Shown here one piece after another: positions 1-16,619 of a stretch of 64,000 bases of DNA. Origin of the DNA: Chloroflexota bacterium (GTDB lineage: Bacteria; Chloroflexota; UBA5177); the NCBI GenBank assembly GCA_051002135.1, contig JBPCMQ010000004.1, positions 2,095 through 66,094 on the forward strand. The letters run 5' to 3'. Each line of letters opens with the position of its first letter. Position 1 is the stretch's first letter. The notes under the pieces were generated by a model that did not search any database, had not been told where the DNA came from, and worked only from the letters and a program-made list of their open reading frames with translations. Both the position numbers and the translations under genes were made by a program.

Positions 1-1669
1 CGGCCGACTGGCACTCGTATATGACTTGATGGAGCCGCTCCGTCCAGAGGTCGATCGGTATGTGTTGGAAGTTGTTCGAGAGCATACGTTTGCGCCAAAT
101 GATTTTCTGATCACAGCGCGGGGAATGGTGCGCCTGCATCCGCAAACCTATAACACCGGCAACGACTTCATCTACCGAGATGACTACGCACATCCCCTCG
201 ATGCTTACCTCGTCTTAACGGGCCAAAAGGACTTGGATGGAAACCTATTAACGAGTAACCCCGAGACAAGTGGACGTTATCACTCGTCATGGCTTTCGAT
301 GATGTATCCCCGCCTTTTCCTTGCGCGTCAACTCTTACGAGAGGACGGCGTCATCTTCGTGAGCGTCGATGACCACGAAGAACATGACTTACGTCTCCTG
401 ATGAACGAGATCTTCGGGGAAGAGAACTCCCTGGGCACGCTCGTGTGGCAATCAAAGAAAGGGGGTGGCGGCGACAGCGGAAATCTAGTGCAGGATAACG
501 AGTATGTTCTCTGTTATCGCGGAACCAATAACCCACATTGTCTATCGAGGGTTGAGATCGCAGCAGAAGAATTGGATAGGGTGGACGTGAAAGGGCCGTA
601 CCGAAGAGGACGGGAGCTTAATAAGTGGGGTTCTGGTTCGAGACGCGACGATCGTCCTACGATGTATTTTCCCATTCCAGGCCCCGACAGCAATAGCGTG
701 TACCCCATCCGGAATGACGGCAGCGAGGGCCGTTGGAGGAAGGGCCTCAAGAAAATGCTGGCTTTAGTGAATCGAGGCGATGTGGAGTTTGAACAAAGAC
801 CAGATGGAAGCTACATCGTATACGAAAAGATTCGATCAGCCGATCCTCGCTTGAAACCATACCGGACGTGGCTCACCGATGTGGGCACAACAGCCGATGG
901 GTCGAAGACTGTGAAGGAGTTGTTTGACGGTCGCTCCGTCTATGACTACCCGAAGCCGGTTGCGCTCCTCAAGCGTCTCATCTTCATGGGCACAAATGGT
1001 GATGATGACTTAGTTTTAGATTTCTTTGCTGGATCTTGCACTACCGCTCAGGCTGTTCTCGAACTGAACCGTGAGGATGAAGGATCAAGGCGGTTCATCT
1101 GTGTACAGGTACCTGAGCCGTCACCGCTTAAATCCGAGGCACGAAAGGCTGGTTACGGAACGCTTGCCGACGTTGGCAAAGAGCGCATCCGGCGAGTAAT
1201 GTTTCGCATGAATCAGGACAGTGCAAGTGCCCTTGACCTCAGGGAATCTGACGAGCCCGAGGACCTGGGGTTTAGGGTTCTCAAACTCGTTCAGTCGAAC
1301 CTGCGAGGCTGGAATGCAGTTGCTGCTGGTACTTCACCGACTGAATACGCTAGCCAGCTTGAGATGCTCGAAGATCCTCTCGTGCCAGGGTGGATGCCTT
1401 TGCAGGTCATCTATGAGATTGCCATTAAGGAAGGCTTGAGCCTGACGTTCGCGGCAGAAGAGGCAATCGTGGACGGCGTCACGATCTGGAACGTGACCGA
1501 TGACCAGACTGGACAGGGAATCAAAATATGCCTTGACGATGCCCTCTGCCTGGACACGGTTCGAGCTTTGGATCTGACCAAGGAGGATCGATTCATCTGC
1601 CGTGATATCGCGCTCGATGACACAGTCACGGCGAATCTCGCCCTCCAATGTCACTTGAAGACGATCTAG
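1..1669 (+). CDS. mod: Type III restriction-modification DNA methyltransferase (Mod subunit), 5'-partial: the reading frame is open to the window edge
   Basis: C-terminal FxGxG-like SAM motif 'LVLDFFAGSCTTAQAV'. Beta-class N6-adenine methyltransferase architecture, with the expected DPPY motif lying upstream of the window. Its stop (1667-1669) abuts the GTG start of the downstream res gene. Confidence 0.8.
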   Translation, partial: GRLALVYDLMEPLRPEVDRYVLEVVREHTFAPNDFLITARGMVRLHPQTYNTGNDFIYRDDYAHPLDAYLVLTGQKDLDGNLLTSNPETSGRYHSSWLSMMYPRLFLARQLLREDGVIFVSVDDHEEHDLRLLMNEIFGEENSLGTLVWQSKKGGGGDSGNLVQDNEYVLCYRGTNNPHCLSRVEIAAEELDRVDVKGPYRRGRELNKWGSGSRRDDRPTMYFPIPGPDSNSVYPIRNDGSEGRWRKGLKKMLALVNRGDVEFEQRPDGSYIVYEKIRSADPRLKPYRTWLTDVGTTADGSKTVKELFDGRSVYDYPKPVALLKRLIFMGTNGDDDLVLDFFAGSCTTAQAVLELNREDEGSRRFICVQVPEPSPLKSEARKAGYGTLADVGKERIRRVMFRMNQDSASALDLRESDEPEDLGFRVLKLVQSNLRGWNAVAAGTSPTEYASQLEMLEDPLVPGWMPLQVIYEIAIKEGLSLTFAAEEAIVDGVTIWNVTDDQTGQGIKICLDDALCLDTVRALDLTKEDRFICRDIALDDTVTANLALQCHLKTI

Positions 1670-4369
1670 GTGGCTCTGATGGAATTCAGATTTGACGCCA
1701 ACCAAGCGTTCCAGACAGAGGCGGTCGATGCAGTCGCTGACCTCTTGGATGGTCAACCCCTCGTCACACCTGATCTGACCCTTGCCCTAGGTGGCGGATT
1801 TGCCGCCGTTGGGAACCGGCTGGACTTGAGCGAGGGGACGATCCTGAACAACTTGCGGAACTTTCAGGAGCGAAAGGGCATCGAGGTAGATAAGACACTG
1901 AACACTATCGATCAAGATATCGAGACGGCTGACGGTAGGAAGCTGGTCAGCTTCCCCAACTTCTCCGTGGAAATGGAAACTGGTACCGGAAAGACTTACG
2001 TCTACATCCGAACCGTTCTCGAACTCTTCTCGCGCTATGGTCTCCGCAAGTTCATCGTGGCGGTGCCCAGTGTCGCGGTGCGGGAAGGTGTGCTCAAAAC
2101 CCTGCGCATGACGCAGCAGCATTTTCGGGAACTCTATACCAACGTTCCCTATCGGTACTACGCCTACAACTCGGAGAACTTGACGCAGATCCGGAGCTTC
2201 GCTTTGTCAGACAGTATCGAGATCATGATCATGACGCTCGATTCGTTTAACAAGGCGGGAAACGTATTTTGGCGAAGCACGGATCACTTGCAAGGCGAGA
2301 CACCGGTTCATCTCGTCCAGGCCGCTCGCCCCATCCTCACCCTTGACGAGCCGCAGAATATGGAGAGCGAAAAGAGCATCGCGGCCCTGGCTGCACTCGA
2401 TCCTCTCTTCGCTCTCCGGTACAGTGCGACCCACCGCAACGCCTACAACCTCGTGTATCGCTTAACACCCTTCGATGCCTACCGACAGGGCTTGGTGAAG
2501 CGGATCGAGGTTGCCTCGGTGGTCAAGGACGATGACTTCAATCAAGTCTTCTTGCGGCTGGAGGATATCAAGGCGCAAAAGAAGACAGTCTCCGCTCGCC
2601 TCGCGGTCCACCAACTCATGAAGGACGGCAGCGTCAAAGAGAAGGTAGTCACGGTCAAGCCTGGAGACTCGCTGGAGGACAAGACTAAACGACCGGAGTA
2701 CGCTAGCTTCGTTGTTGACGAGATCAACCCTGGTAGCGAAAGCGTGTGCTTCGCGAACGGGATCGAGATCGGGCTTGGAGAATCCCAAGGGGCTGACAAG
2801 GAAGCGGTATTCGAAGCGCAGATCCGGTACAGCATCGAAGAGCATTTCCGAAAGCAAGCTCGGCTGAAACCGCACGGCATCAAAGTCCTCTCGCTCTTCT
2901 TCATTGACCGAGTAGCGAACTACGCCTCCGAGGATGGCATTATCCGGCGTCTCTTCGATGCGCAGTTCGAGTCGATCCGGCAGCGGTATCCCGACTGGTC
3001 GGATATCGATTCGGCTTCTGTGCAAGCCGCGTACTTCGCTCAACGTCGCTCTACGGGGGGAGAGGTCATCTACGAGGACAGCACGACTGGCGCGGCAAAG
3101 AAGGACGAGGAGGCATACGACTTGATCATGAAGGACAAAGAGCGGCTACTCTCCTTCGATCAGCCGGTCTCGTTTATCTTCTCCCACTCGGCCCTCAGGG
3201 AAGGATGGGATAACCCGAACGTCTTTCAGATCTGCACATTGAACCAGACAACGTCCGAGATGAAGAAGCGCCAGGAAGTCGGTCGTGGGATGAGGCTGGC
3301 GGTGGATCAAACGGGCGAGCGTGTCTGGGACGAGCACGTCAATATTCTGACCGTCGTGGCAAACGAGAGCTACGACCGCTATGTCTCGACGCTCCAACAG
3401 GAAATCGAGGCCGACCACGGCAAATCGGGGCTGCCGCCGAGGCCGAAGGATGCGAGGAAGCGGGGAATTGCTCGTCTCCGCAAGGAGTACACGCTGCGAC
3501 CGGAGTTTCAGGAGCTATGGCAGCGGATAAGTCCCAAGACCCGATATGCGGTTCGCGTTGACACCGAGACGCTCATCCAGCAGGTGGTCGGAGACTTGGA
3601 CAAAGTTCAGATCCGTCCTCCCCAAGTCGTTGTGTCCAAGGCGCGGGTGGCGGTCGATGACGAGGATCGTCTGCATTCGATTCGGCTGACCGGTGACAAG
3701 GGCGTGCTGGATCTGAGCAAACGGCACACCCTCCCCAACGTCATCGGCATCATGACCCACCTGCTGGAATTCACCACTCCACCGATTCGTCTCAGCCGAT
3801 GCACCTTGCTTGAGATCTTTCGGCGCACGTCGAATCAGCAAGCGGCACTCTCCAACCCTCAAGAGTTTGCCGCGGTGGTGGTCCAGATCCTCAAGTCCCG
3901 CCTAGCGGATCAACTCGCCGACGGCATCCAGTACGAGAAGATCAACCAGTGGTACGAGATGACCCAGTTCGACGCCGAGATCGAGAGTTGGGAGGACCAT
4001 CTCGTGCCGGCGGACCACGCCCTCTATGACTACGTCATCTACGATTCAGCCGTCGAGCGGCAGTTTGTAGAGGATCTCGAAGGCCGTGATGACGTACGCC
4101 TCTACATCAAGCTGCCGAACTGGTTCAAGGTGCCGACTCCGGTTGGAGAGTACAACCCAGACTGGGCAATCGTGATGGAGGATCGCGACGAACACGCCGA
4201 CACGAATGGCAAGCCGCTTCTCTATCTGGTGAGAGAGACGAAGTCCACTACGAACATGGACGATCTGCGACCCGATGAGCGCAGGAAGATCATTTGCGGT
4301 GGGCGGTTCTTCAGGGAAGCTCTAGGCGTCGAGTACACCGTTGGTCCAGAAGCCGCCACACTACCATGA
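1670..4369 (+). CDS. res: Type III restriction enzyme Res subunit (SF2 helicase + PD-(D/E)xK nuclease)
   Basis: Walker A 'METGTGKTYVYI'. DEAH-like motif II 'LTLDEPQNM'. Helicase C motifs 'REGWDNPNV...QEVGRGMRL'. C-terminal nuclease motif 'YNPDWAIVMED...VRETK'. GTG start immediately after the mod stop. Confidence 0.85.
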   Translation: MALMEFRFDANQAFQTEAVDAVADLLDGQPLVTPDLTLALGGGFAAVGNRLDLSEGTILNNLRNFQERKGIEVDKTLNTIDQDIETADGRKLVSFPNFSVEMETGTGKTYVYIRTVLELFSRYGLRKFIVAVPSVAVREGVLKTLRMTQQHFRELYTNVPYRYYAYNSENLTQIRSFALSDSIEIMIMTLDSFNKAGNVFWRSTDHLQGETPVHLVQAARPILTLDEPQNMESEKSIAALAALDPLFALRYSATHRNAYNLVYRLTPFDAYRQGLVKRIEVASVVKDDDFNQVFLRLEDIKAQKKTVSARLAVHQLMKDGSVKEKVVTVKPGDSLEDKTKRPEYASFVVDEINPGSESVCFANGIEIGLGESQGADKEAVFEAQIRYSIEEHFRKQARLKPHGIKVLSLFFIDRVANYASEDGIIRRLFDAQFESIRQRYPDWSDIDSASVQAAYFAQRRSTGGEVIYEDSTTGAAKKDEEAYDLIMKDKERLLSFDQPVSFIFSHSALREGWDNPNVFQICTLNQTTSEMKKRQEVGRGMRLAVDQTGERVWDEHVNILTVVANESYDRYVSTLQQEIEADHGKSGLPPRPKDARKRGIARLRKEYTLRPEFQELWQRISPKTRYAVRVDTETLIQQVVGDLDKVQIRPPQVVVSKARVAVDDEDRLHSIRLTGDKGVLDLSKRHTLPNVIGIMTHLLEFTTPPIRLSRCTLLEIFRRTSNQQAALSNPQEFAAVVVQILKSRLADQLADGIQYEKINQWYEMTQFDAEIESWEDHLVPADHALYDYVIYDSAVERQFVEDLEGRDDVRLYIKLPNWFKVPTPVGEYNPDWAIVMEDRDEHADTNGKPLLYLVRETKSTTNMDDLRPDERRKIICGGRFFREALGVEYTVGPEAATLP

Positions 4370-4407
4370 CCGCCGTTCTGCCCCCGACCCAAAGTCTGCC
4401 GTAAAAG

Positions 4408-5703
4408 ATGACCAGAGACGACCCGACACTTCTCGGTCGAGGATTGCAGGGTAGCAGCCCTCCGCACCGTGACGATCACAAGCGGGTACTCGTGCCGCTT
4501 GAAGCCTGGGAATACAACTCGCCCTTGCTTAAGATTGAAGGGAAGAGAACGGACCTGGGACTCCTGGCAGAAGCACTCCTGTATTACGACCAGGTCTTCG
4601 TCGATATTCAAAGCGAGCACCAACTCGAAGACCTCTTGCGTTGGGCAATCGAGCGCGACCATATTAATTCGCTGCTTACCTTAATTCATGAGGGCGTGCT
4701 CAAGTTCCACTATCACGCTTTCCTCACCACTGCGGTAAGCACCGAAGGGGTTTTCCGATTACTCCATATCGAGGATACAGCGCAAGCACGAGGGGCCTCC
4801 TTCCCTGAAAAGATCATTTACCGCGCCGATTACTCGTGCCTCCACGCGAGGAAACAGAGGGCTCTCATCCAAGAAATAGAGCGGAACTACGTGGAGGCGA
4901 AGGTAGATAACTACGAACTCCCAATTGAAGACGCCAGACGAGCGTTAGGTGACCCCGAATACTGTAGCCAGTTACTTCAGACATTCATTGATGACCTGTA
5001 TCGCGGTCTCCACCTGGGCAAGCCCCCGCAGGTTTCCTGCGAAATCGAGCAAGTTAGTCCGGAGACCTACACGATCAAGTGGAATACCGACTTCACCCAG
5101 ATCACAAACATGACCTCTGGAAAGCTCGACTTTCGTCCGGACATTCCGATCATCGGTGAGGCTCACACCAACCGCTGCATCATGACTGCCATTCGCAATG
5201 GGCTGGATCTTTCTCTCGGCGATGTGATGGCTACCCTAGCTGGCAACAAACTGGTCGAGGCAAGCGAGCACTCAGGTCGAGTTAGAGAGATCATACAGGA
5301 ATTGAAGATCGAAGTGGAGTTCCCAGACGTGCGCGGACTCGTCAACTCCGGCGACATGTATCTCGACACGGTGCTAGAAATTCGGGCGAAATCGAGCAAA
5401 TTCCGAGGGTGGCTTCAGCAGGAAGGCGACAAGGATCGCAATGCGCTGTCAGCGTATCACAACGAAGTTGCGCAAGCGTCGGGCGTAGCTAAGCAAGGAG
5501 TCGCGACCTTAAAGTTATTCGGAATCCTTAGTTCAACTGGTGCCGCCGCTGCGCGGGTAGTCGATCCAACTGGCGCTGTCAGCACTGCTCTAACCGCCAC
5601 CACAGGTGTCACTAATTTTCTCGGATTCATCGGAGACCGGCTCGTGAAAGATTGGAAGCCGGTTGTGTTTGGGGACTGGGTAAAGAAGCGTCTGGACAGT
5701 TAG
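4408..5703 (+). CDS. Hypothetical protein, third gene of the type III R-M operon (no recognisable domain)
   Basis: 431-aa ORF with an ATG 38 bp after the res stop, on the same strand. Visibly lower GC than the rest of the window. No motif I can assign. Confidence 0.6.
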   Translation: MTRDDPTLLGRGLQGSSPPHRDDHKRVLVPLEAWEYNSPLLKIEGKRTDLGLLAEALLYYDQVFVDIQSEHQLEDLLRWAIERDHINSLLTLIHEGVLKFHYHAFLTTAVSTEGVFRLLHIEDTAQARGASFPEKIIYRADYSCLHARKQRALIQEIERNYVEAKVDNYELPIEDARRALGDPEYCSQLLQTFIDDLYRGLHLGKPPQVSCEIEQVSPETYTIKWNTDFTQITNMTSGKLDFRPDIPIIGEAHTNRCIMTAIRNGLDLSLGDVMATLAGNKLVEASEHSGRVREIIQELKIEVEFPDVRGLVNSGDMYLDTVLEIRAKSSKFRGWLQQEGDKDRNALSAYHNEVAQASGVAKQGVATLKLFGILSSTGAAAARVVDPTGAVSTALTATTGVTNFLGFIGDRLVKDWKPVVFGDWVKKRLDS

Positions 5704-6018
5704 GATCGGCGCATGCTCCTCCCCCAACGCATCTCCGCGTGCGCCGGCTGCTTCCTACAGAACGCCCGCTTGTCGCCCGGATTTGCCCACGCCTCGACTA
5801 CTGCCCAAGCTGCCTGCTTGCGTCGATCAGGCACTGACTTGTCACGGCGCGAAAGGGTGCTTGAAAGAGTTATCAACGTGTTTGTCTTTGCGAAATCGAA
5901 GAGCATCACGGAGACATTATCTTTTAACCACCACGCATTCACTCCGTGTAGTCAAAAATGGTGCCTTGAGTAGATAACGCTATACCCCGCCGTCCGTCCC
6001 AGCCCCTATGGTTCAGGC

Positions 6019-6132
6019 TGTCCATGACGGAGATCGTACGCGTCGCGTGCGTCTTCCCCTGCGACACGCACGGCCTGTCCATGACGGAGATCGTACGCGT
6101 CGCGTGCGTCTTCCCCTGCGACACGCACGGCC
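6019..6132. repeat. Near-perfect 57-bp tandem direct repeat, 2 copies
   Basis: 'tgtccatgacggagatcgtacgcgtcgcgtgcgtcttcccctgcgacacgcacggcc' occurs at 6019-6075 and again at 6076-6132. Each unit contains an imperfect internal inverted repeat. Confidence 0.9.
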
Positions 6133-6363
6133 ACGGGGGGTAACCTCTCACTCGCTTCAAACTGACGGTCGTATCTTGACACCTTCTATTTGTCAAGTGT
6201 TCGGCTCGACGTGCGCCGCTGGCTAAGTCGTGTCAAGCCTTGATGTGATCCCGTCTCTCACTCCGTCAATCTTTCCCATGTCAAGTTGACACGGGTACGT
6301 CTCTATGCATGGTCGTGGATTGAGCGACACTACATCAACTCACCTTCGGTGTGTCACTGAGGC

Positions 6364-6556
6364 CACGGGCGCTCGGTCCCACGGCCCGCACAGAGCCTCA
6401 GAGAGCCCGATTCATCGACCCACACGGGCACCCGGACGGCACGCCCCACGTCCTCGCGGACAGCACGGGCACTCGGTCCCACGGCCCACACGGGTCCATA
6501 AGAGCCCGATTCTACGATCCTCACGGGCACTCGGACGGCCCGGAAGTATTGACAGG
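6364..6556. repeat. Degenerate ~95-bp tandem duplication built of four 'CACGGGCRCYCGG...' half-units
   Basis: Units 6364-6463 and 6464-6556 align by eye ('cacgggcgctcggtcccacggcccgcaca...agagcccgattc...cacgggcacccggacggc'). The duplication ends in a perfect 9-bp-arm hairpin, GGAAGTATT-N8-AATACTTCC, at 6541-6566. Confidence 0.7.
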
Positions 6557-7107
6557 GTAATACTTCCATGCGATGAACGCAACATGAATCGGAGGGACAC
6601 TCGCCACCCCTCTAACAGGAGTACACCAACCATCGCCGGTGCGCCGCTGTTCTCGCTCTGTCAATCCTAGCAGGTCGCATGAAGTCTTGCTCTGTTCATG
6701 CTGCAGGCGGGCGTAGAGCGTGCCACAAGGCGCCCCTACCGTTTCGCAAGGAGTGCCCGATGGCAATTGCACAAATGGACCGCGGCACAAAATGTCAGCC
6801 GAAAGTCGTCCGACTGACGCCGAGCACACTTGACACGCTCGATATCATGGGGGACTGCCTGCTCAACTTCTCGTTGGAGCAGCGGCAGAGACAACAGCGC
6901 CGAGGCGGAGGTCCACCCGTGAGCTACGCGCTCGCGCTGGGAAACGCGGTGCACGAAACTGTCGCACAGATGAATCGTTTGCTCGCGGCCGGACGCCCCC
7001 TCCCGCCGCCCGTTCAAGAAGGTCGCGCCAGTGGCTTGATGGCATTGATTCGCAACATCCGGCGCGAGTCTGCCGGTCTTAGACGGACGAGAAGCCGTGT
7101 TGGCCGC

Positions 7108-9684
7108 CTACGGCCAGCGCACCCTCGCGTAGTTCCAAACCTCTTCCATAGACAGCGCCACCGTTTGGTTGTTGGCTCGAATGAACAACTGCTGCCCTTT
7201 GTCGTCGGTCACAAATGCGGGACGGGGCGAAGGCTTGATGGAGACTTCGCACACCTCTTGGCCGCTCGCATTGGGGAAGGTGATGCGGATGAACGCGCTC
7301 AAGTCTTTCCCGTAGGCGTTCAGCAATAGGTTCGTTAGGTGTAGCTCGAAGCCATCGCGACCAGGCTTCTTGGTGAGCGACTCGTAGTCGTGTGCCAAAC
7401 CCAGGGCCGTCCCGATGTCGTCAACCCCGATCAGCAGGACGCCGCCTGCCACCGAGTTGAGGAAGCCGGCAACGGTCTTCACGATGACCTTCTCGAGCAC
7501 CGGATTGACCTTGTTCTCCCGCATATCCCAACGTAGGGAGGACTTGAACTCGAGTGTCTCGCTCTCTCCTCCGGCGATCAAAGCGGCCACGCCAGACGCG
7601 GGCGCGGGAGCAGGGGGCGCGGCGCCAAGGTAGGTCAACTCCCCGAGCTGGGCCGGCTGCAGCTTGTCGAATTCTTTCTGCAGAACCTTTAGGTATCGCC
7701 ATTCAATGCCGGTTAAGAGGGTCGCGTTCTCGCACCAGATCTGGGCCGCGCGGTCCTTGTGCGCAACGTCAATATCCTCTCGCCCCTTGGTCTCGATAAG
7801 ACAGTGAATCTCGTCGGCGGAAACGGCGACGAAGTCGGGCTCGTAGTACCGGAGGTTGGCGGCGGCGTCTGTGTACTCGATCGTGAAGCCGAATTGAGAG
7901 GGCATCTTGGCGAACCGGAGCACGTCGCTCGCGTCTTCGAGAAAGCCGGCAAACTGTCGTTCGAACTCGTTGTCGCAGGCAACGAGGTTGAAGACGGTCT
8001 TCGTAGCGGGTCGGGTCGGACGCGAGAAGGGGAAAGGCAAGACCTGCGAGAGCCGGCGATCGCTGAGGATGAGCTCGGGTGTCTGCTGCTCAATGACAAG
8101 GGCGCGAAGCGCTGCCGTGAAGGATTTGACGGTGACGTACTGAGCGACGCTCGTGGAGATGGCCTTGAGAATGATCGGGTCGTAGAGGTCGGCGGGCTCG
8201 CCAAAGGCGCGTTCCGCGAGAAATTCTCGTACCTTGGGGACTAAAGCCGCAAATTGAGAGGGCAGCTTGACATCTTGCGCGATCCGCTTTGCATAGTAGG
8301 AAATGACTTCCTCGGGTGTCTGGACCTCGGGTATGCTGTAGTCGCGGTCGACGACCTTCTCTAACGTGATGATGTCGTAGCCCTCGTAATGGAACTCCTT
8401 GGCGGCGGCATCGTTCTGCGTCTTGGGCAGGGGAGGGCACGTCATCTCGCGGACGTTGAGGCCCTCGATCTCCTCGGTGAGGGTCTTCTTGCGGGACAAG
8501 ATCGGACTCAGCTGAGGCATGGCTATGTCCTTGCCGAGCTTGTCTTCGTCAGGCTTGATGACGACGATCTTGACCTTGTCGCCGGTCAGATCGAAGGTTC
8601 CGAGCTCGAGCACCTCGTCACGCTCCAGCTGTTCGACGAACTCGATAAAATTCTTGTTGCCTATCACGTCAACGCGCTCTTGGTACAGATTGCCCAGGTC
8701 GCGAAACATGAGGCGAAGGCCGCGCCCCACGGTCTGCTCGGGAAGAATATTGGCCTTCGCCTTGTATGGGCGTAGGCCGACAACGACCGTGACGTTCTGG
8801 ACGTCCCACCCCTCCCGCAACATAAGCACGCTCACGATGGCATTGACGGGACTCTCAGCCTCGTCAACCTCGCGAGCGACCCGCCGGGCAATGTCAAGGT
8901 CCTTGTCTGAGACCTCTCCGGACCGTTTCGTGTGGATCACCAGAAGTCTGTGGCCTCCAAACTCGCTCGGGTACTTTGTTCGGAGATAGTCTCCCACGTC
9001 ATCGGCCTCGCTCGTGTCGTGCATCATGACGAAGAGGATCGGCGTCTTTCCGAGTGGCTCCAGCTGCTCGCGATACTCGCGCCAGCGCTCCACGGCAGCC
9101 GTCAAGTAGGCCTGGTAGCGTGTGCTGGCGACGTCGGATGGCTGTTCTCTAATACCCCTCGCGATGCCCTTCATCGGCCGCTTCACGACATTGTCAAGGA
9201 TAGCTTGCTTGAGCGGATAGTCATAGACGGTCCAGGTAAAGAGACTGCCCTTGGGGTACCGAGGCGTGGCCGAAAAATCTAGTTGGGCCGCGAGACCTCC
9301 CGGGTTGTCCACGTGGAGGCGACGGATCGCCCGGCTCCACTCGCTCTCCTCGTCGTGCGTGTGATGAGCTTCGTCGTTGATGACAAGGCAGGGAGACTTG
9401 CGCGACGCGATGCGCTCGTCGAAGTCGTCGATATCAGACATCTTCGCCGGCGGCTTCGGGCCGAGGACCGCCGTCATTGCCTCGGGTTCGCCGTCGGCGC
9501 CATTGACCGAAGACCGATCATAAATCTGCTGTATGTTCGTCAGGTAGAGCGCGCCTTCCGACCCGGCACGTTCATTTTCACCCCTGAGATAAACGTCGAC
9601 GTCCCAGAAGATTTGGAAGTCCGGCGGGATCACCGGATCGGATCGGAAGACACGGCCGGCCGCGAAGTCTAGACGGGGTGGCTA
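7108..9684 (-). pseudogene. N-terminally truncated SF2 helicase-nuclease (type III Res-like) with a C-terminal AlbA_2/Schlafen-like domain
   Basis: The frame opens only ~16 codons above a GTG at 9633. DEAH box 'LVINDEAHH' lies ~90 aa from the N-terminus and no Walker A is present. Helicase C 'LMLREGWDVQNV...QTVGRGLRL'. PD-(D/E)xK 'YEPDFVAV...IETKG'. C-terminal 'ESETLEFKSSLRWD...' is the AlbA_2 signature. Confidence 0.6.
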
Positions 9685-9781
9685 ATGTTCGTACCTAAGT
9701 GCACGTACAAGGATCCTTGTTCGGAGAGAAGCTCATGGATAATCAGCAGTCTCTCATACATCATCTGCAGGTAGGAGTCTA

Positions 9782-11503
9782 GATTTCGGCATTCTCGAGG
9801 AGGCCGAGATCGACGAGGCGCAGGAGGCCAAGCTCGGCCGCCTCTTCGCCCAGCAGTACGAGCTGATCACCCGCGAGGAGCGCCTCGATATCGTGGGCCG
9901 GGACATCGTCGACCACTTCCTCGGCCGCGGCTTCGCCGGCAAGGCCATGGTCGTCTCCATCGACAAGGCCACCGCCCTCCGCACCTACGACAAGGTCCAG
10001 AAGCACTGGCAGGCACGACTCTCCGCCAAACTAGCCCGCCTCGCGAACGATGCACTCTCTGAAGAGGAAGCAGAGCTCCTCCACGAGGAGATCGCGTGGA
10101 TGCAATCCACCGACATGGCGGTCGTCATCTCCTCCTCGCAGAACGAGATTGCCGAGATGGCGGAGCGTGGACTCGACATAACCTCGCACCGGCGGCGGAT
10201 GGTCGAGGAGGATCTCGACGAGAATTTCAAGAATCCGGCAAATCCCCTGCGGATCGCCTTTGTCTGCGCCATGTGGACCACCGGCTTCGACGTGCCCTCC
10301 TGCTCGACCATCTACCTCGACAAGCCGATGCGCAACCACTCCTTGATGCAAACCATCTCCCGCGCCAATCGCGTGTTCCCCGAGAAGAACAACGGCGTGA
10401 TCGTCGCATACGTCGACGTCTTCCGCGATCTCCAGAAGGCGCTGGCGCTCTACGCGGTCACCGGGGGCATCGGCAAGGGGGCCATCGACACTGGTGTCCT
10501 CCCCATCGAAGAGAAGGCCGTCTTGGTCGACGAGCTCCGGGACGCGGTGGACGATGCGGTCTCGTACTGCTCGAACCGAGGAGTGCTTCTTGGCGCTCTC
10601 ACCGGCCTGCAGGGGTTCGAATTCGTCCAGGCGGCCGGCGACGCCGTCGAGCAGCTGATCGTCAACGATGAGGAGAAGGCGGCATTCCTCGACCACGCCA
10701 AGCTGGTCGACCGGCTCTTCAAGGCCATCCTGCCCGATCCCAGCGCCTCCGAGTTCGGCCCGATGCGGGGGGTCCTCGTCCACCTGTCCCGCACCATCGC
10801 GGACTTCTCGCCGCGGGTCGACGTGAGCCCGGTTCTGCGTCGCGTCGAGCAGCTCCTCGACGACTCGGTTGCCGCCAAAGCCTACGTGATCCACGAAGAC
10901 CGCGCGCCCTATCAGATCGACCTCAACGACGTGGACTGGCAGGCGCTCGAGCAGACCTTCCAGCAGGGTCACAAGCGCACCGCGGCCGAGCGGCTCCGAT
11001 CAATGCTGACCACCCGCGTGATGAACCTCGCCCGCCTCAACCCGACGCGGACCGACCTCCTCGAGCGCTTCCAACGACTGATCGACGAGTACAACGCGGG
11101 CTCGAGCAACGTCGAGGAATTCTTCCAGCGGCTGATCGCGTTCACCAAGGACCTCACCGCCGAAGAGCAGCGTACCGTCGCTGAGCATCTTACCGAAGAG
11201 CAGCTCGCCGTGTACGACCTCCTGATGCGTCCCTCGCCCGAGCTGAGCGACGCCGAACAGTCGCAGGTCAAGCGGGTCGCCGAGTCGTTGCTCGACGTCC
11301 TCAAACGCGAGAAGTTGGTCCTCGACTGGCGCAAAGAGCAGCGCTCCCGCGCCTCGGTGCGGCTGACGGTCGAGGAGAAGCTGGACGAGCTGCCGGAGAC
11401 ATTCACCCGGCAGCTCTACGCACAGAAGTGCGACGTCGTCTACCAGCACGTGTTCGACAGCTACTGGGACGACGGGCAGAGTGTTTACGACCGGGTTGCA
11501 TGA
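9782..11503 (+). pseudogene. hsdR: Type I restriction enzyme HsdR, C-terminal fragment lacking the nuclease domain and helicase motifs I-II
   Basis: HsdR-specific motifs 'IVDHFLGRGFAGKAMVV' and 'LRIAFVCAMWTTGFDVPSCSTIYLDKPMRNHSLMQTISRANRVFP'. The frame opens at 9743 after a TAA. There is no start codon before 9893, and homology begins around 9782. Confidence 0.7.
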
Positions 11504-11625
11504 CGGTAGAGCCGGCAGGACTCCCGACACGCGCCACCGTGAAGTAACGGGAGAGCCGTCACCTTACGGCTCTCGGCACAATTTGGCGCGGACCGCTCAA
11601 GGGGGGCCTAAAGTTCCGAACCCGT

Positions 11626-11934
11626 TTACGCGAGAGGCTCGCCTTCGAGTGGAATCTTGGCTTCTGTCCAGCGTATCGAGTAGCGCGCTGCGGCACGCCT
11701 AACGACTCCGTACGACGTTCGTGGATTGCTGTGCTGAATCCTGATGTGATCTTGGATTAGATCGAGGAGCACTTCGTCAACAGATTTATCGCGCCGCTCA
11801 GCCATCTCGTCGAGTTCGAGGTAGTCGACTATTGGCATCTTCAAATAGATCGCCGTATCAGTAGGCGCCGTCTTCGGACGCGCCCGCTCGGTGACGCGAA
11901 TGTATGGCTCGTGCTTGTCCGGCTCGGCGCTCAT
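11626..11934 (-). CDS. Ribbon-helix-helix antitoxin (BrnA-like) of a type II TA pair
   Basis: 102 aa. A beta-strand followed by helices 'TAIYLKMPIVDYLELDEMAERRDKSVDEVLLDLIQDH'. Its start overlaps the upstream toxin stop (ATGA, 11931-11934). Confidence 0.5.
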   Translation of the reverse strand: MSAEPDKHEPYIRVTERARPKTAPTDTAIYLKMPIVDYLELDEMAERRDKSVDEVLLDLIQDHIRIQHSNPRTSYGVVRRAAARYSIRWTEAKIPLEGEPLA

Positions 11935-12290
11935 GTCAGGCTACGCTTGAAGTCCCAGTACATACCTTCATAGTACTTACTATCGGGCTCATAGGCTGTC
12001 CATGCAAGCCAAACTCCCCGATGATCAGAAGGCACGAGTGCAGTTAGCAGAAATCGGCCCTTGCGTGTGTAGCCAAGCATTATGAGAGGCGCTCCCCGGT
12101 CTCCTTCCGAATAGCCCGTGTTGTACGCGAACTCGGCGCCGTTTGGGTCTTGATAGCACTGCAAGACCTCGGCGAATCGGACACGATGATCCCCGAGCTG
12201 AACGTGATCATCGAAGTTCGCGTCTCGCACGATCTCGTCAACGCCACCGTACCGGTCGAAGTACCAATTAGCGTCTTCCACTCCGCGCAT
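11931..12290 (-). CDS. BrnT-like toxin (DUF497 family ribonuclease)
   Basis: 119 aa. 'DHVQLGDHRVRFAEVLQCYQDP' matches the DUF497 pattern W..N..KHGV.F.EA..VF.DP, and 'GRFLLTALV...RGVWLAWTAYEPD' matches GRLL.VV.T.R..IRIISAR. Toxin-first gene order as in brnTA. Confidence 0.55.
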   Translation of the reverse strand: MRGVEDANWYFDRYGGVDEIVRDANFDDHVQLGDHRVRFAEVLQCYQDPNGAEFAYNTGYSEGDRGAPLIMLGYTRKGRFLLTALVPSDHRGVWLAWTAYEPDSKYYEGMYWDFKRSLT

Positions 12291-12380
12291 TCTCTGCTTT
12301 TAGGCGGCACTGTCCCTTTGTTAGCGAGCGGGCTTGTAGCGAACGCAGAGCCGGACGAGCTCCCCGTGCGGCCCAACAGG

Positions 12381-12473
12381 CCAACTGTACGCGCAGAAGT
12401 GGGACGTCGTCTATCAGCACGTGTTCGGCAGCTACTGGGACGACGGACGAAGTGTTTACGATCGAGTGGCGTA
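12381..12473 (+). repeat. Second copy (~85% identity) of the hsdR 3' terminus (last 30 codons plus stop)
   Basis: Encodes 'QLYAQKWDVVYQHVFGSYWDDGRSVYDRVA*', compared with 'QLYAQKCDVVYQHVFDSYWDDGQSVYDRVA*' at 11411-11503. Confidence 0.8.
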
Positions 12474-12714
12474 GGGCGTGGACGGGGGAAAGTTTGCCGA
12501 CCCGCGCGGTCCCAACTCACAATCCACTCCGTGTTCAACGTGTAGGTGACAACGGACGGCGCAATGGGCAACGCGGGTCGCGCACCAGGCGATGACGCTA
12601 CGGGCCACGTGTGGACAACGCGGTCGATCCAATGGGCGGCACGAGTCACGCGTATATTCGATGAACCCGCCTGCTCCGAATCCACCCACCATCCCGACGA
12701 CCTCGTGCTACCAT

Positions 12715-12830
12715 GAGGTGCAGCTAGGGGAGCGCGTTTTTCGCGCTGAGAGTGTGGCTGAGGCCGCAGACCCTTGAACCTGATCCGGGTAATTCCGGCG
12801 TAGGGAAGACTCCAAGCGACTTTCCGCTCC
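12715..12830 (+). promoter_or_regulatory. TPP (THI-box) riboswitch
   Basis: 'ctaGGGGaGC...GCTGAGAgtgtggctgaggccgcagACCCTTGAACCTGATCCGGGTAATTCCGGCGTAGGGAAG' is a near-consensus THI element, sitting directly upstream of the 12841 operon. Confidence 0.85.
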
Positions 12831-12840
12831 CACCTGCGGT

Positions 12841-13932
12841 GTGAGCGGTTATTTTTTGGAGAGTCGTGTGCGGGGTGAGCTGAGACCGGCTGCCGGCAAG
12901 GTGTCGAGCTCGCTGTTCGAGCGGGTCATCAAGCCGTCGCTCGGCGCGGGTCGCCACGACGTCGTGGTGGGTCCGCGGTCTGGGGTCGATGTGGGCGTTC
13001 TCAATATTGGGAGCGGACAGGTCATGGTGCTGACCTGCGACCCGCTGTTTGTCATGCCGGCATACGGGTGGCGCCGCGCGGCCTGGTTCGCGGTTCATAT
13101 CGTTGCTTCAGACGCGGCGACGTCGGGTCTCTGCCCCAGCCTCTGCGCGATCGACCTGAATCTCCCTCTGGACATGACCGACGACGAGCTGGCCCTTTTA
13201 TGGGAGGGAATCCACGAGACCTGCCGGGACACCGGCGTCGCTATCGTAACCGGACACACCGGAAGGTACGAAGGGTGTGCGTACCCCATGCTGGGCGCGT
13301 GTACGATGATGAGCATCGGCTCCGCGGATGGATACGTGACGCCGGACATGGCCCGCGTTGGGGACGAGGTGGTCATCACCAAGGGTGCGGCCATCGAGAC
13401 GACGGGGCAGCTGGGCGTCGTTTTCGAACGTCGCATATGCGATGCTCTCGGTCCCGACGTTGCGCGTGAAGCCGCCGCGCTGTTTTTTCACATGTCCGTC
13501 GTGAAGGATGCGTCCATTGCCGCCGAGATTGGGGTACGCGACGCGGGCGTCACGGGCATGCACGATGCTACCGAGCGCGGTGTGTGGGGCGGGCTGGTGG
13601 AGATCGCGGAAGCAGCGGGGGTGGGATTGACGATCGATGGTGACGCCATTCCGGTTCGACCGGAGGTCGCTGCCGTTTGCGGTCTCTTCCGTATTGATCC
13701 GTTCACGGCGAGCAGCGAGGGGACGCTCCTCATCACCTGCCGGCCATCGAAGGCGGCATGCCTGGTCCAACGACTGCAAGATGAGGGAATCCAGGCCGCA
13801 CGCATTGGCGAGGTGCTGCCGCCGGAGTGTGGGCTGTCCGTGACACTCGAGGGCCGCGCCACTCGCTTGCAGTCTCCGGAGACGGATCCCTTCTGGCCCG
13901 CGTTCACGGCTGCCCTCGAGGAAAGCCGATGA
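12841..13932 (+). CDS. AIR synthase-related protein (PurM-like superfamily; HypE/ThiL-like fold), first gene of the TPP-riboswitch operon
   Basis: 'VHIVASDAATSGLCP' and 'GVAIVTGHTGRYEGC' match PurM-like N- and C-domain signatures. It lacks the SelD Cys/Sec loop. Confidence 0.7.
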   Translation: MSGYFLESRVRGELRPAAGKVSSSLFERVIKPSLGAGRHDVVVGPRSGVDVGVLNIGSGQVMVLTCDPLFVMPAYGWRRAAWFAVHIVASDAATSGLCPSLCAIDLNLPLDMTDDELALLWEGIHETCRDTGVAIVTGHTGRYEGCAYPMLGACTMMSIGSADGYVTPDMARVGDEVVITKGAAIETTGQLGVVFERRICDALGPDVAREAAALFFHMSVVKDASIAAEIGVRDAGVTGMHDATERGVWGGLVEIAEAAGVGLTIDGDAIPVRPEVAAVCGLFRIDPFTASSEGTLLITCRPSKAACLVQRLQDEGIQAARIGEVLPPECGLSVTLEGRATRLQSPETDPFWPAFTAALEESR

Positions 13933-14705
13933 AGCTCGAGGCGGCCGCGGTCTCGAAACACTTCCGCCTCGATGGCGGAACGCTCACCGCACTCGAGAAC
14001 GTATCTCTTTCGGTGCGTCCGGGAGAATTTGTCAGTCTTGTCGGGCCGAGCGGCTGCGGCAAGAGCACGCTCTTCAACATTCTGGCCGGGTTGGAGCTTC
14101 CGGACGGCGGCAACGTTCGTATCGACGGCATGGACGTGACGGGGCGCCTCGGTCTGGTCGCTTACATGCCGCAGAAGGATCTCCTGCTGCCGTGGAAGTC
14201 CGTGCTGGACAACACGGTTGTTGGCGCGCGGCTGAGGGGAATATCGAAGGCGGATGCGCGCCGGGAGGCTCTTGCCTGGTTCCATCGCTTCGGGCTACAG
14301 GGATTCGAGCGTTCCTACCCGGCAGCGCTTTCGGGAGGCATGCGGCAGCGAGCAGCGCTGCTCCGCACGCTGCTGTGCAGGCGGGAGATCCTGTTGCTCG
14401 ATGAGCCGTTTGGGGCGCTTGACGCTCTCACGCGCATCGACATGCAGACGTGGCTGGTTGACATACGCCGCGAGCTCGACAACACGATCGTGCTCATTAC
14501 CCATGACGTGGACGAGGCCATCTATTTGTCGGACAGGGTATTCGTCATGAGCTCTCGACCCGGACGCGTGCTCGCCGATGTACCGATCCTCGTCGAGCGA
14601 CGGGGTGAACACGAGGAGACCGCGACCTCACCGGCGTTTGTAGGGGTGAAGCGCGATCTTCTGCGTCTGTTACGTCCCAATGGGGCTCACGAGGAGGTAG
14701 CGTGA
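13929..14705 (+). CDS. ABC transporter ATP-binding protein, NitT/TauT family (ThiZ-like)
   Basis: Walker A 'GPSGCGKST'. Signature 'LSGGMRQR'. Walker B 'LLLDEPFGALD'. H-loop 'ITHD'. ATGA overlap with the upstream gene. Confidence 0.85.
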   Translation: MKLEAAAVSKHFRLDGGTLTALENVSLSVRPGEFVSLVGPSGCGKSTLFNILAGLELPDGGNVRIDGMDVTGRLGLVAYMPQKDLLLPWKSVLDNTVVGARLRGISKADARREALAWFHRFGLQGFERSYPAALSGGMRQRAALLRTLLCRREILLLDEPFGALDALTRIDMQTWLVDIRRELDNTIVLITHDVDEAIYLSDRVFVMSSRPGRVLADVPILVERRGEHEETATSPAFVGVKRDLLRLLRPNGAHEEVA

Positions 14706-15607
14706 GCAGAAGCCAATCTCGCGCCCCGTCCCGAAGGGTGGAGGCTGAGAAGATTCGCGGACATCGCCTGCTGCGGCTCGTCCCGCCGATTGCCCTGGTG
14801 GCCGCCGCGCTCTCGCTATGGGAGGCGGTGGTCGATATCCGCCACGTCCCGGATTACCTTTTGCCCGCGCCGTCCGAGATCTGGCGGACGACGCTCAGTG
14901 AGCGTGATCTCCTCTTCGTCAATACCCTCCCGACACTGGAGATTGCGGTTCTGGGTTTTTCTCTCGCCCTTGTGGCCGGTCTCGCCATCGCTCTTGCCAT
15001 TCACTTCTCGCGAGCGGTCGAGCTTGCGTTCTACCCGATGGTCATTGCGTCGCAGGCAGTCCCCGTGCTCGCACTCGCGCCCATCCTGGTGATTCTCATG
15101 GGATTCTCGATCTTCCCAAAGCTCGTGGTGGTGGCTCTGATCTGCTTCTTTCCCATCACGGTCAATGCCGTGGACGGGATGAAGAGCGTCGATCGCGATC
15201 TTGTCAACCTGATGCGGACGATGGGCGCCAACCGCTGGCACGTTCTGCGCGACGTGGAGCTTCCGACCGCGCTACCTTTCTTTTTCTCCGGCGCCAAGAT
15301 CGCGGTGACCTTCAGCGTCGTTGGATCGCTCTACGGGGACTGGGTCGGCGGCTCGTCAGGGAGCCTGGCGCTGGTGATCATACAGGCTCAGTCCCGGTTC
15401 GACACGGCGGTGCTGTTCTCGGCCATGGCCATCCTGACGATCATCGGCGTTGCGCTCTTCGCGCTGCTCTCTTTCGTGGAATGGCTTGCGATGCCGTGGC
15501 GCCGCGCCCAGCGCTTTCCCGCCGCGGGACATCAAGATCCAAAGACATCTGACCAGGGGGATGAGCGTGTCACGGACGGACAGAGGAACAGGGAGAGATA
15601 TGCGTAA
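14702..15607 (+). CDS. ABC transporter permease (BPD_transp_1; ThiX/SsuC-like)
   Basis: Six predicted TM helices. GTGA overlap with the ATPase gene. The C-terminal ~40 aa may be run-on sequence. Confidence 0.8.
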   Translation: MSRSQSRAPSRRVEAEKIRGHRLLRLVPPIALVAAALSLWEAVVDIRHVPDYLLPAPSEIWRTTLSERDLLFVNTLPTLEIAVLGFSLALVAGLAIALAIHFSRAVELAFYPMVIASQAVPVLALAPILVILMGFSIFPKLVVVALICFFPITVNAVDGMKSVDRDLVNLMRTMGANRWHVLRDVELPTALPFFFSGAKIAVTFSVVGSLYGDWVGGSSGSLALVIIQAQSRFDTAVLFSAMAILTIIGVALFALLSFVEWLAMPWRRAQRFPAAGHQDPKTSDQGDERVTDGQRNRERYA

Positions 15608-16619
15608 AACACAGCGAATCGGCGTAAGAGTCGTGCCGGTCCTGCTTGCGGGGTACCTCGCGCTCGGCGGCACAGCGGGCTTGGGACATGGCACCGCGGC
15701 CGGCCTCCAGCACGCGTCGATCGTGCTGGACTGGTATCCCAATTCCGATCATGGTGGTCTCTATACAGCTATCCGGCAGGGATTTTTCCGGAAAGCCGGA
15801 ATCGACATGACCGCTCGCGTGCCGTCCGATACCAGCGCGCAGATTCGACTCGTCGCTGCTGGGGCTGCCGACTTTGGCATTTCCTATGAAACCGATCTAC
15901 TGGCTGCCCGCGCGCACCGCATCCCGGTCCGTTCGGTGATGTGCATCATGCAGCACCCTCTCGACACCGTCATGACGTTACGAACCTCCGGCATCACGCG
16001 TCCGCGCCGGCTCGCCGGCCACAGCGTCGGCATGGCCGGATCTCCCAGCGATGAGCCCATCGTCAGTGCCATGATGACGCACGACGGCTCGTCCATCGGT
16101 CGGGCGCACATGGTGAATGTCGGCTACAACCTCTTGCCGGCGTTGCTGAGCAAGAAGGTAGACGCCATCGTGGGCGTGTACTGGACGTGGGAGGCAATTC
16201 AGGCGCGGCAGCGCGGCTACGCGGTCAACGTCATGCGCGTGGAGCGCTGGGGCGTGCCCAACTACTGTGAGCTGGTGCTGGTGGTGAGCGAGCGGACGAT
16301 ACGAACGCGGCCCGGGTTTGTCCGGGCGACCGTGCAGGCGCTGCAGAAAGGCTATAGGTTGGCCGAAGCGCGTCCGGAGATTGCCGTACGGAGCCTGTCC
16401 GTCGCGGACAGGACGTACTCCAAGGGGCGGAACAAGGCTCTCGTGCTCGAGAGCATACGTCTCCTGCGCTCGGTCGTGGGAAGTGCCCGGACAATCGGAT
16501 ACCAAAGTCCGCCGCAGTGGCGTCACTATGCCGGCTGGTTGGCCAGGAACAAGCTGATTGACGGACGAGTGGATGCCCGCGCCGCCTTTACCAATCAGTT
16601 TCTGGGTCAGATTCGATGA
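15600..16619 (+). CDS. NMT1/THI5-like periplasmic substrate-binding protein (ThiY-like, pyrimidine-precursor binding)
   Basis: Signal peptide 'RIGVRVVPVLLAGYLALGG'. 'LDWYPNSDHGGLYTAIRQGFFRKAGIDM' is characteristic of the NMT1/THI5 family. Confidence 0.8.
   Translation: MRKTQRIGVRVVPVLLAGYLALGGTAGLGHGTAAGLQHASIVLDWYPNSDHGGLYTAIRQGFFRKAGIDMTARVPSDTSAQIRLVAAGAADFGISYETDLLAARAHRIPVRSVMCIMQHPLDTVMTLRTSGITRPRRLAGHSVGMAGSPSDEPIVSAMMTHDGSSIGRAHMVNVGYNLLPALLSKKVDAIVGVYWTWEAIQARQRGYAVNVMRVERWGVPNYCELVLVVSERTIRTRPGFVRATVQALQKGYRLAEARPEIAVRSLSVADRTYSKGRNKALVLESIRLLRSVVGSARTIGYQSPPQWRHYAGWLARNKLIDGRVDARAAFTNQFLGQIR

Follow-up and report, generated by a model that had tools for sequence, protein, structure and literature searches.

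Islands and prophages that target tRNA or tmRNA genes integrate into the 3' end of the gene and supply it with a replacement 3' end. Sibley and Raleigh are said to have described, in 2004, a cassette-like variation of restriction genes in the immigration control region of Escherichia coli, and de Vries and Wackernagel reportedly described, in 2002, homology-facilitated illegitimate recombination during DNA uptake. The locus that we analyze here recalls all of these processes. It consists of a small toxin-antitoxin (TA) gene pair lying between two diverged copies of the 3' end of the type I restriction gene hsdR, within a stretch of 64,000 nucleotides from a Chloroflexota bacterium (GenBank assembly GCA_051002135.1, contig JBPCMQ010000004.1, positions 2,095 to 66,094 of the forward strand). 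We call this whole 64-kb stretch the window and use its own coordinates unless another contig is named. Other relevant precedents are the variable defence locus of Streptococcus suis, in which defence genes and alleles are replaced at one locus (PMC5398294), and BrnT/BrnA, a type II TA system of Brucella abortus (PF04365/DUF497, PDB 3U97; Heaton et al. 2012, as presented in PMC5086665). For the BrnT of B. abortus, the residues that PMC5086665 names as catalytic or required for toxicity are Asp6, Glu7, Lys9, Arg41 and Glu78.

Our analyses make it likely that the locus is a mosaic scar left by turnover in a decaying defence island, located upstream of a thiamine operon preceded by a thiamine pyrophosphate (TPP) riboswitch. 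The downstream copy of the hsdR tail is most simply read as what is left of a second restriction allele, and the upstream one belongs to an hsdR gene that has itself lost its 5' half. The features on which this reading is based are the following (position, strand, nature; lengths in amino acids, aa, or nucleotides, nt):

9785..11503, plus strand: 3' half of hsdR allele A (type I restriction), 5'-truncated; the open frame runs from 9770
11363..11503, plus strand: copy 1, the native tail of allele A, 46 codons and a TGA stop; the strongly repeated part is 11411-11503
11551..11574: G+C-rich hairpin of 9 bp, GAGAGCCGU / ACGGCUCUC, in the gap where the hsdR fragment and TA operon converge
11626..11934, minus strand: putative antitoxin, 102 aa, with a ribbon-helix-helix (RHH)-like core at about residues 28-65
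11931..12290, minus strand: putative toxin with a BrnT-like fold, 119 aa (as called by NCBI, 116 aa), leading gene of the pair
12291..12342: junction between the start of the TA operon and the hsdR remnant
12343..12474, plus strand: copy 2, the apparent decayed tail of an hsdR allele B; 30 codons and a TAG stop are intact at 12382-12474

The repeat is conspicuous. An initial annotation, made from the sequence alone, had noticed that the end of hsdR recurs downstream with its stop codon, and an independent repeat search recovered the same direct repeat as the strongest one of the region (11411-11499 against 12382-12470, 87% identity over 89 nt). Including the stops, copy 1 extends over 11411-11503 and copy 2 over 12382-12474, one base higher than the 12381-12473 first given for the latter. 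The 30 codons of the two copies agree at 77/90 bases, and the two stops, TGA and TAG, occupy the same position. A gapped alignment (11379-11499 against 12349-12470) carries the repeat back to 11379/12349 through a single 1-nt indel, with 80.3% identity over 122 nt and a blastn E value of 4e-25 against the 64-kb window. The spacer between the two tail copies measures 878 bp and contains the minus-strand TA pair. Five contigs from other assemblies (JGI 3300009400, two NCBI metagenome-assembled genomes, MAGs, and two Logan runs) match the window at 99.7-100% identity, the JGI contig (hereafter L001) being identical to it, and scaffold Ns are their sole differences from the window across the interval. 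All five, which come from the window's population, carry the insertion. Because they agree, and because two of the five extend from copy 1 through the TA pair to the far side of copy 2, the arrangement is genuine and not an assembly artefact.

The origin of copy 2 can be approached through the explanations that compete for it. The chance that it is a piece of an unrelated gene or regulatory element resembling hsdR by coincidence, which the initial annotation had named as the case that would undo its reading, or else a product of chimeric assembly, is virtually nil. Its only favorable point is the high G+C content of this DNA, which inflates the number of chance open reading frames (ORFs), and it has to face the E value between the copies, the agreement of the five independent assemblies, the preservation of both frame and stop position, the match of an Acidimicrobiaceae HsdR to copy 2 (75% over 32 aa, tblastn) and the absence of any other ORF with homologues covering copy 2. 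We also consider it very improbable that the hsdR tail was duplicated in situ upon insertion of the TA pair, by duplicative insertion or replication slippage, and that the downstream copy then decayed neutrally. Such an event would account for a cargo of 878 bp flanked by direct repeats and for some decay in copy 2 (an indel and two radical substitutions). However, neutral decay should affect the codon positions evenly, whereas the 13 differences between the copies are distributed as 0, 2 and 11 over positions 1, 2 and 3 (binomial p = 2e-4). Since most of them occupy third positions, the divergence would have arisen while both tails were under protein-level selection. Moreover, the third-position divergence between copy 1 and copy 2 amounts to 37%, more than the 21% found between two full alleles, namely allele A and that of contig L091 (see below), and insertion mechanisms are not known to make target duplications of 90-130 nt. 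The codon-position pattern contradicts a simple insertion with target duplication and speaks for one of the origins initially proposed, the remnant of a second hsdR allele. We accordingly favor reading copy 2 as the end of a different, once-functional hsdR allele rather than as a local duplication.

The identity of 86% between the copies does not by itself demonstrate a local duplication, because the tails of unrelated high-GC genomes match copy 1 equally well, with up to 77/90 identical bases, the same value as copy 2. The last 30 residues are the most conserved part of the proteins of this HsdR clade, so that proteins of ~62% overall identity share 24-28/30 tail residues (consensus QLYAQKCDxVYQHVFDSYWDDGxSVYDRxA; tail signature YQHVFDSYWDDG). 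Beyond the window, the best match of copy 2 reaches 72/90. Copies 1 and 2 have in common the clade-rare residues CDVV and DRVA as well as a block of 32 nt, variable at a single base, which no other locus among the 85 compared contains, and they are related alleles. A second allele with 88.6% identity to allele A does exist in the same JGI sample as L001, in the Chloroflexi contig L091.

As to its present state, copy 2 is not a gene but a non-functional relic. It carries the changes C->W and D->G at sites that are invariant (Cys; Asp or Glu) in more than 100 homologues, a 1-nt indel puts its LDELP codons (12349-12364) in another frame, and an in-frame stop is found at 12337-12339. The initial description of copy 2 as being in frame holds for the 30 codons and their stop, but upstream of them the frame is broken, there is no start codon, and the frame contains no ORF of at least 40 aa. 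The stump measures 130-180 nt, given that no similarity to hsdR is detectable to the left of ~12343 and that the toxin gene begins at 12290.

The hsdR gene to which copy 1 belongs is also incomplete. The ORF ending at 11503 retains the conserved HsdR tail and, in Pfam, only the C-terminal domains T1R_D3-like and T1RH-like_C; it aligns to positions 513-995 of the 1029 of the PADLOC REase_I profile and to positions 471-669 of the 674 of TIGR00348. The nuclease domain and the first helicase lobe (HSDR_N, ResIII/SWI2_SNF2) are absent from it. Compared with the HsdR of L091, which has an intact N terminus, it corresponds to residues 494-850, with 91% aa and 88.6% nt identity, and the homology starts abruptly at base 9785, the L091 protein having 493 extra residues at its N terminus. 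With tblastn, HsdM and HsdS queries from L091 and from L014, an Acidimicrobiaceae MAG described below, found no match in the 64-kb window, nor was there any further match there to the N-terminal half of HsdR. The type I system of the window is dead and its hsdR is a 3' pseudogene fragment. The name hsdR given initially was right as to the identity of the 3' end and its stop, but what is present is just the 3' half from 9785, not the whole gene. Because the neighboring hsdR is dead, 5'-truncated and without hsdM or hsdS, the TA pair is not a cassette placed at the end of a working hsdR. The earlier idea of a TA cassette at the end of a restriction gene also disagrees with the homologues of the pair, which elsewhere do not lie beside hsdR.

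Contig L091 (JGI 3300009400, Ga0116854_1002924, positions 1-12552) derives from a Chloroflexi MAG of the same sample as L001 and contains genes for Cas1, for a 1129-aa protein without a Pfam match on record and for an hsdM-hsdS-hsdR operon. Its hsdR is cut by the contig end, which lies 74 nt before the start point of L001. We considered whether L091 and L001 might be one genome, in which the TA pair would come after an intact hsdR. This seems unlikely, as the identity of L091 to the window is a mosaic of 70-98% up to the contig end and does not climb to 100%. In another contig, L079, from an Actinomycetota MAG, only hsdR fragments are found (3713-3919 and 8001-8798), comprising the C-terminal part from residue 309 and an opposite-strand piece. 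Decayed hsdR genes may be common in this HsdR clade.

Among these remnants, no unit of the interval other than the TA pair looks intact. Its two proteins are on record as ACR2JC_00550 and ACR2JC_00545. As initially described, they are encoded on the minus strand with overlapping stop and start (11931-12290 and 11626-11934), the toxin stop and the antitoxin start sharing 4 nt (ATGA). Direct searches for their family were null: neither protein has a match in Pfam (up to E = 10), NCBIfam, PADLOC, PHROGs or PDB sequences, and in a word-indexed search of 5.8 billion proteins each of them found nothing but itself. The toxin family has 19 representatives among 1.84 billion proteins, as detected by an exhaustive HMMER scan. 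Their alignment with the toxin (A2) raised the pLDDT of its AlphaFold2 model from 48.8, as obtained from the single sequence, to 92.5, with a pTM of 0.85. When this model was compared with the PDB using Foldseek, the top match was the toxin of a Salmonella TA complex (7vd7_A, E 4.7e-3, prob 1.0), and the third was the Brucella BrnT (3u97, prob 0.92, TM 0.68 on the BrnT length, root-mean-square deviation 3.4), followed at lower ranks by the RelE, HigB and YoeB toxins. A literature search on PDB entry 7VD7 gave nothing relevant. At the sequence level, 6/18 members of the toxin family weakly match PF04365 (BrnT_toxin, best E 1e-3), and the A2 profile retrieved no BrnT chain from the PDB. The residues invariant in the family are M71, G73, T75, P87, G92 and W94.

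The pairing of the two genes is conserved. Every toxin homologue examined (four loci) is followed by a partner gene of 103-112 aa, always in the toxin-first order, and these partners are 15-24% identical to the 102-aa protein of the window. In alignment A4, two of the four partners match RHH_1 (PF01402, E 5.8e-5), and the partner profile built from it matches in the PDB the EndoAI antitoxin (4me7_E, E 0.005) and CopG regulators. Because BrnTA is likewise described as having the toxin gene first and an RHH partner (PMC5086665), we accept as a working description, at the level of the structural model and of these relatives, a toxin of BrnT-like fold with an RHH antitoxin, not filed in PF04365. 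The DUF497/BrnT-like toxin of the initial annotation is consistent with the fold but not with any direct match to PF04365, and its RHH antitoxin agrees with the partner family, although the window protein itself goes unmatched; it is in the relatives that the weak PF04365 and RHH_1 matches were found.

The homologous pairs occur in ordinary metabolic neighborhoods, beside a DUF6941 gene and never beside hsdR. In the three closest toxin homologues, P0123, P0124 and P0125 (L086 356-790, L087 180-614, L089 2169-2591 and the P0124 locus), a divergent DUF6941 (PF22091) gene lies immediately upstream of the TA pair, the place taken in the window by the hsdR stump. No toxin relatives were found in viral contigs. 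The toxin, with its BrnT (RelE-like) fold, would be a ribonuclease (RNase) and would be translated first; the RHH antitoxin, translationally coupled to it, presumably binds and neutralizes the toxin and represses the operon. We infer that the pair most likely works as a type II module of this kind. It might act as an addiction or abortive-infection module and, as such, may retain the segment; it might also stabilize the defence island, as the initial annotation suggested.

The edges of the island and the composition of its genes complete this picture, with the following additional features:

7108-9633, minus strand: ResIII/RE_endonuc/Schlafen AlbA_2 gene, 5'-truncated
9634..9784: low-GC filler of 150 nt (GC 0.52), the left junction between two 5'-truncated genes
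12716..12823, plus strand: TPP riboswitch (Rfam RF00059, 67.4 bits), at the right edge of the island, for context only

On the left, the gene at 7108-9633 starts at its own DEAH motif, without helicase motif I, and stands head-to-head with the truncated hsdR; one deletion or rearrangement seems to have taken the 5' ends of both. On the right, the TPP riboswitch is found ~240 nt beyond copy 2. A synteny search with the AIRS-like protein of the thiamine operon found only relatives with 55-60% aa identity (L092-L098), which keep the operon and have no hsdR or TA upstream of it; exact look-ups of the same protein gave no record. Because the operon to its right is kept in relatives devoid of hsdR and TA genes, copy 2 is, at this right edge, the relic lying furthest inward. 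The G+C content at third codon positions (GC3) is 0.88 in the hsdR fragment and 0.60-0.65 in the TA genes (0.60 in the toxin), against 0.73-0.77 in the core operon and 0.59-0.72 in the type III restriction-modification (R-M) genes at the left of the window. This contrast implies that the hsdR fragment and the TA pair do not have a long common history and that at least three sources have been juxtaposed. The locus is, in short, a mosaic.

We also looked for displaced tails elsewhere, asking in 75 related hsdR loci, taken from species-representative genomes, whether the tail of the locus occurs there a second time. This pattern appeared in a single one of the 75, contig L014 (Acidimicrobiaceae MAG, PMTF01000024.1), where 6552-11577 comprises an intact hsdM-hsdS-hsdR operon followed by these features (L014 coordinates):

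9812-10321: HNH gene
10404-11447: frameshifted Mrr_cat gene
11449-11577: decayed hsdR tail

The decayed tail of L014 is 76.7% identical over 90 nt, contains stops and indels, and differs at codon positions 1, 2 and 3 by 9, 9 and 20 changes. Both this remnant and that of the window are ~130 nt long and start near the TVEE codons (n=2). Just upstream of the displaced tails, a weak similarity of 25 nt links window 12321-12345 with L014 11431-11456 (TAGCGAG..GCTNGTAG..CGAA), with a local score of 13 against 7.3 +/- 1.4 in shuffles; we do not retain it as a common junction motif, since its p of ~0.007 was obtained post hoc and it is probably due to chance. The L014 counterpart encodes the end of the Mrr ORF. 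The hsdR fragments of L079 were likewise discarded as a further case, being unrelated to the pattern. Viral contigs lack the tail pattern, and plasmids contain the tail peptide only as single matches in full-length hsdR genes.

The turnover that we propose could have proceeded as follows. An older resident hsdR (allele B), ending at 12474 beside the thiamine operon, would have been lost, by overwriting or deletion, except for its last ~130 nt as DNA carrying the 3' end of the related allele A, together with a separately acquired TA pair, landed upstream of the allele B stump. The likeliest route would be a recombination that used homology within the hsd genes as an anchor at one end, the other end being joined illegitimately. 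The junction at ~9785 would date from a later deletion of hsdM, hsdS and the 5' half of hsdR. We infer both the order of these events and the recombination mechanism from their end product. L014, with its intact hsdR, cargo and decayed tail, provides an analogue that supports this scenario. Several points weigh against it. No genome was found with an intact allele B beside the thiamine operon, and no TA-free empty site either; the hsdR locus free of the insertion that might have been expected in related genomes did not appear among them, the relatives of the operon having no hsdR nearby. The order and mechanism of the events are not readable from one sequence. The start of both ~130-nt remnants near the same codon is not what a random illegitimate junction would predict, on the basis of two cases and a search of tails only. 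As for the cargo, neither TA protein alone is significant against any curated family.

Alternatively, a small integrating cassette might target the hsdR 3' tail of this clade, bringing a surrogate tail and displacing the original ~130-nt tail past its cargo. We judge this improbable, yet clearly less so than an in situ duplication. The layout is the expected one (intact tail, cargo, displaced tail), with a similarity that stops at the stop codon and begins abruptly ~130 nt upstream; the GC3 of the TA pair differs from that of the hsdR fragment; and L014 repeats the layout, with a remnant of similar length and an unrelated cargo (HNH and Mrr_cat). However, neither the cargo of this locus nor that of L014 contains an integrase, a transposase or any other recombinase, the longest run identical between the copies is just 18 nt, and the pattern is limited to one of the 75 related loci. 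No tail-bearing element turned up in the viral contigs, the plasmids, as said, gave only single full-length hsdR matches, the TA homologues keep other company than hsdR, and the closest relatives of L014, which diverge directly after the hsdR stop, offer no empty site. Since the cases number only two and neither cargo has a recombinase, we keep the targeted cassette as a minority possibility. The more general idea that the highly conserved last ~45 codons of this HsdR clade serve as a recurrent landing pad or recombination anchor, at which small addiction or defence cargos are swapped in with a replacement tail while the previous ~130-nt tail stays in place, is a long shot, marginally longer still. 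If true, it would represent an undescribed mode of cassette exchange for defence islands, seen in two phyla and with unrelated cargos (a BrnT-like TA pair; HNH and Mrr).

Turning to the details of the two gaps around the TA operon, the hairpin at 11551..11574 is possibly a terminator shared by the convergent hsdR fragment and TA operon: RNA folding of 11500-11630 yields -51.4 kcal/mol (z = -2.2), and a simple terminator scan found nothing there, the hairpin having no T run. The interval 12291..12342 shows no convincing hsdR similarity, and a promoter scan found no sigma-70-like promoter in it; it presumably contains the candidate promoter/operator of the TA operon. Beyond the riboswitch, the operon genes at 12841-16619 encode an AIR-synthase-related protein, an ABC ATPase, a permease and an NMT1-type binding protein, probably a transporter for the salvage of thiamine precursors. 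The left end of the window has, on the plus strand, a type III R-M system that looks intact (mod 26-1669; res 1670-4369, PADLOC REase_III E 2.9e-238). It is followed by an ORF of 431 aa (4408-5703, plus strand) that Pfam, NCBIfam and PADLOC leave unmatched, perhaps an accessory or defence gene; the GC of this segment (26-5703) is 0.52-0.58, below that of the core. Far to the right, two ORFs of 590 aa on the minus strand (59356-61128 and 62221-63993) have identical short peptides in common and no DNA repeat of at least 40 nt; they are probably paralogues.

The mosaic scar offers a clean, datable example of defence-island turnover. The codon-position pattern suggests that the stump came from another, once-selected allele and, by extension, that restriction alleles were exchanged here and not duplicated. 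A further gain is a branch of BrnT-fold toxins with RHH partners that is very rare, lacks annotation and has at most weak matches to curated models. For annotation, hsdR would become a pseudogene fragment, copy 2 a relic, and the two "hypothetical proteins" a TA pair, putatively BrnT-like. A hint of something more general comes only from the recurrence of the layout in another phylum, in L014.

Compared with the known systems, the TA pair resembles BrnTA in having the toxin gene first, in its small overlapping genes, in an antitoxin of the RHH family and, in the toxin model, in a four-stranded antiparallel sheet packed on helices, as far as PMC5086665 describes that of BrnT. It differs from it in the lack of a PF04365 match even at E = 10, in a toxin ~30-40 aa longer with extra N-terminal helices, in an antitoxin that matches no BrnA model, and in the great rarity of the toxin family. 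As in islands that integrate into gene 3' ends, a repeat of the 3' end brackets the cargo, with, on the cassette reading, the upstream copy completing the gene and the downstream one being the displaced original; in contrast with them, the locus has no integrase, its cargo is smaller than 1 kb, the target is a protein-coding defence gene, and the repeats are 14% diverged and without a long identical core. The locus shares with homology-facilitated illegitimate recombination one homologous anchor (the hsd genes), an illegitimate other end and a resident stump left downstream of foreign cargo, although here these are deduced from the end product and not from a donor/recipient pair. The variable restriction loci (PMC5398294) differ by being known from population comparisons with conserved flanks, whereas the evidence here is a single genome with a leftover stump, and the present hsd system is itself dead. 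With them it has in common the exchange of alleles by recombination at one site, a mosaic island and a mixed base composition. In this sense, there is nothing biologically unusual about the locus, which can be compared with restriction loci that vary in a cassette-like manner.

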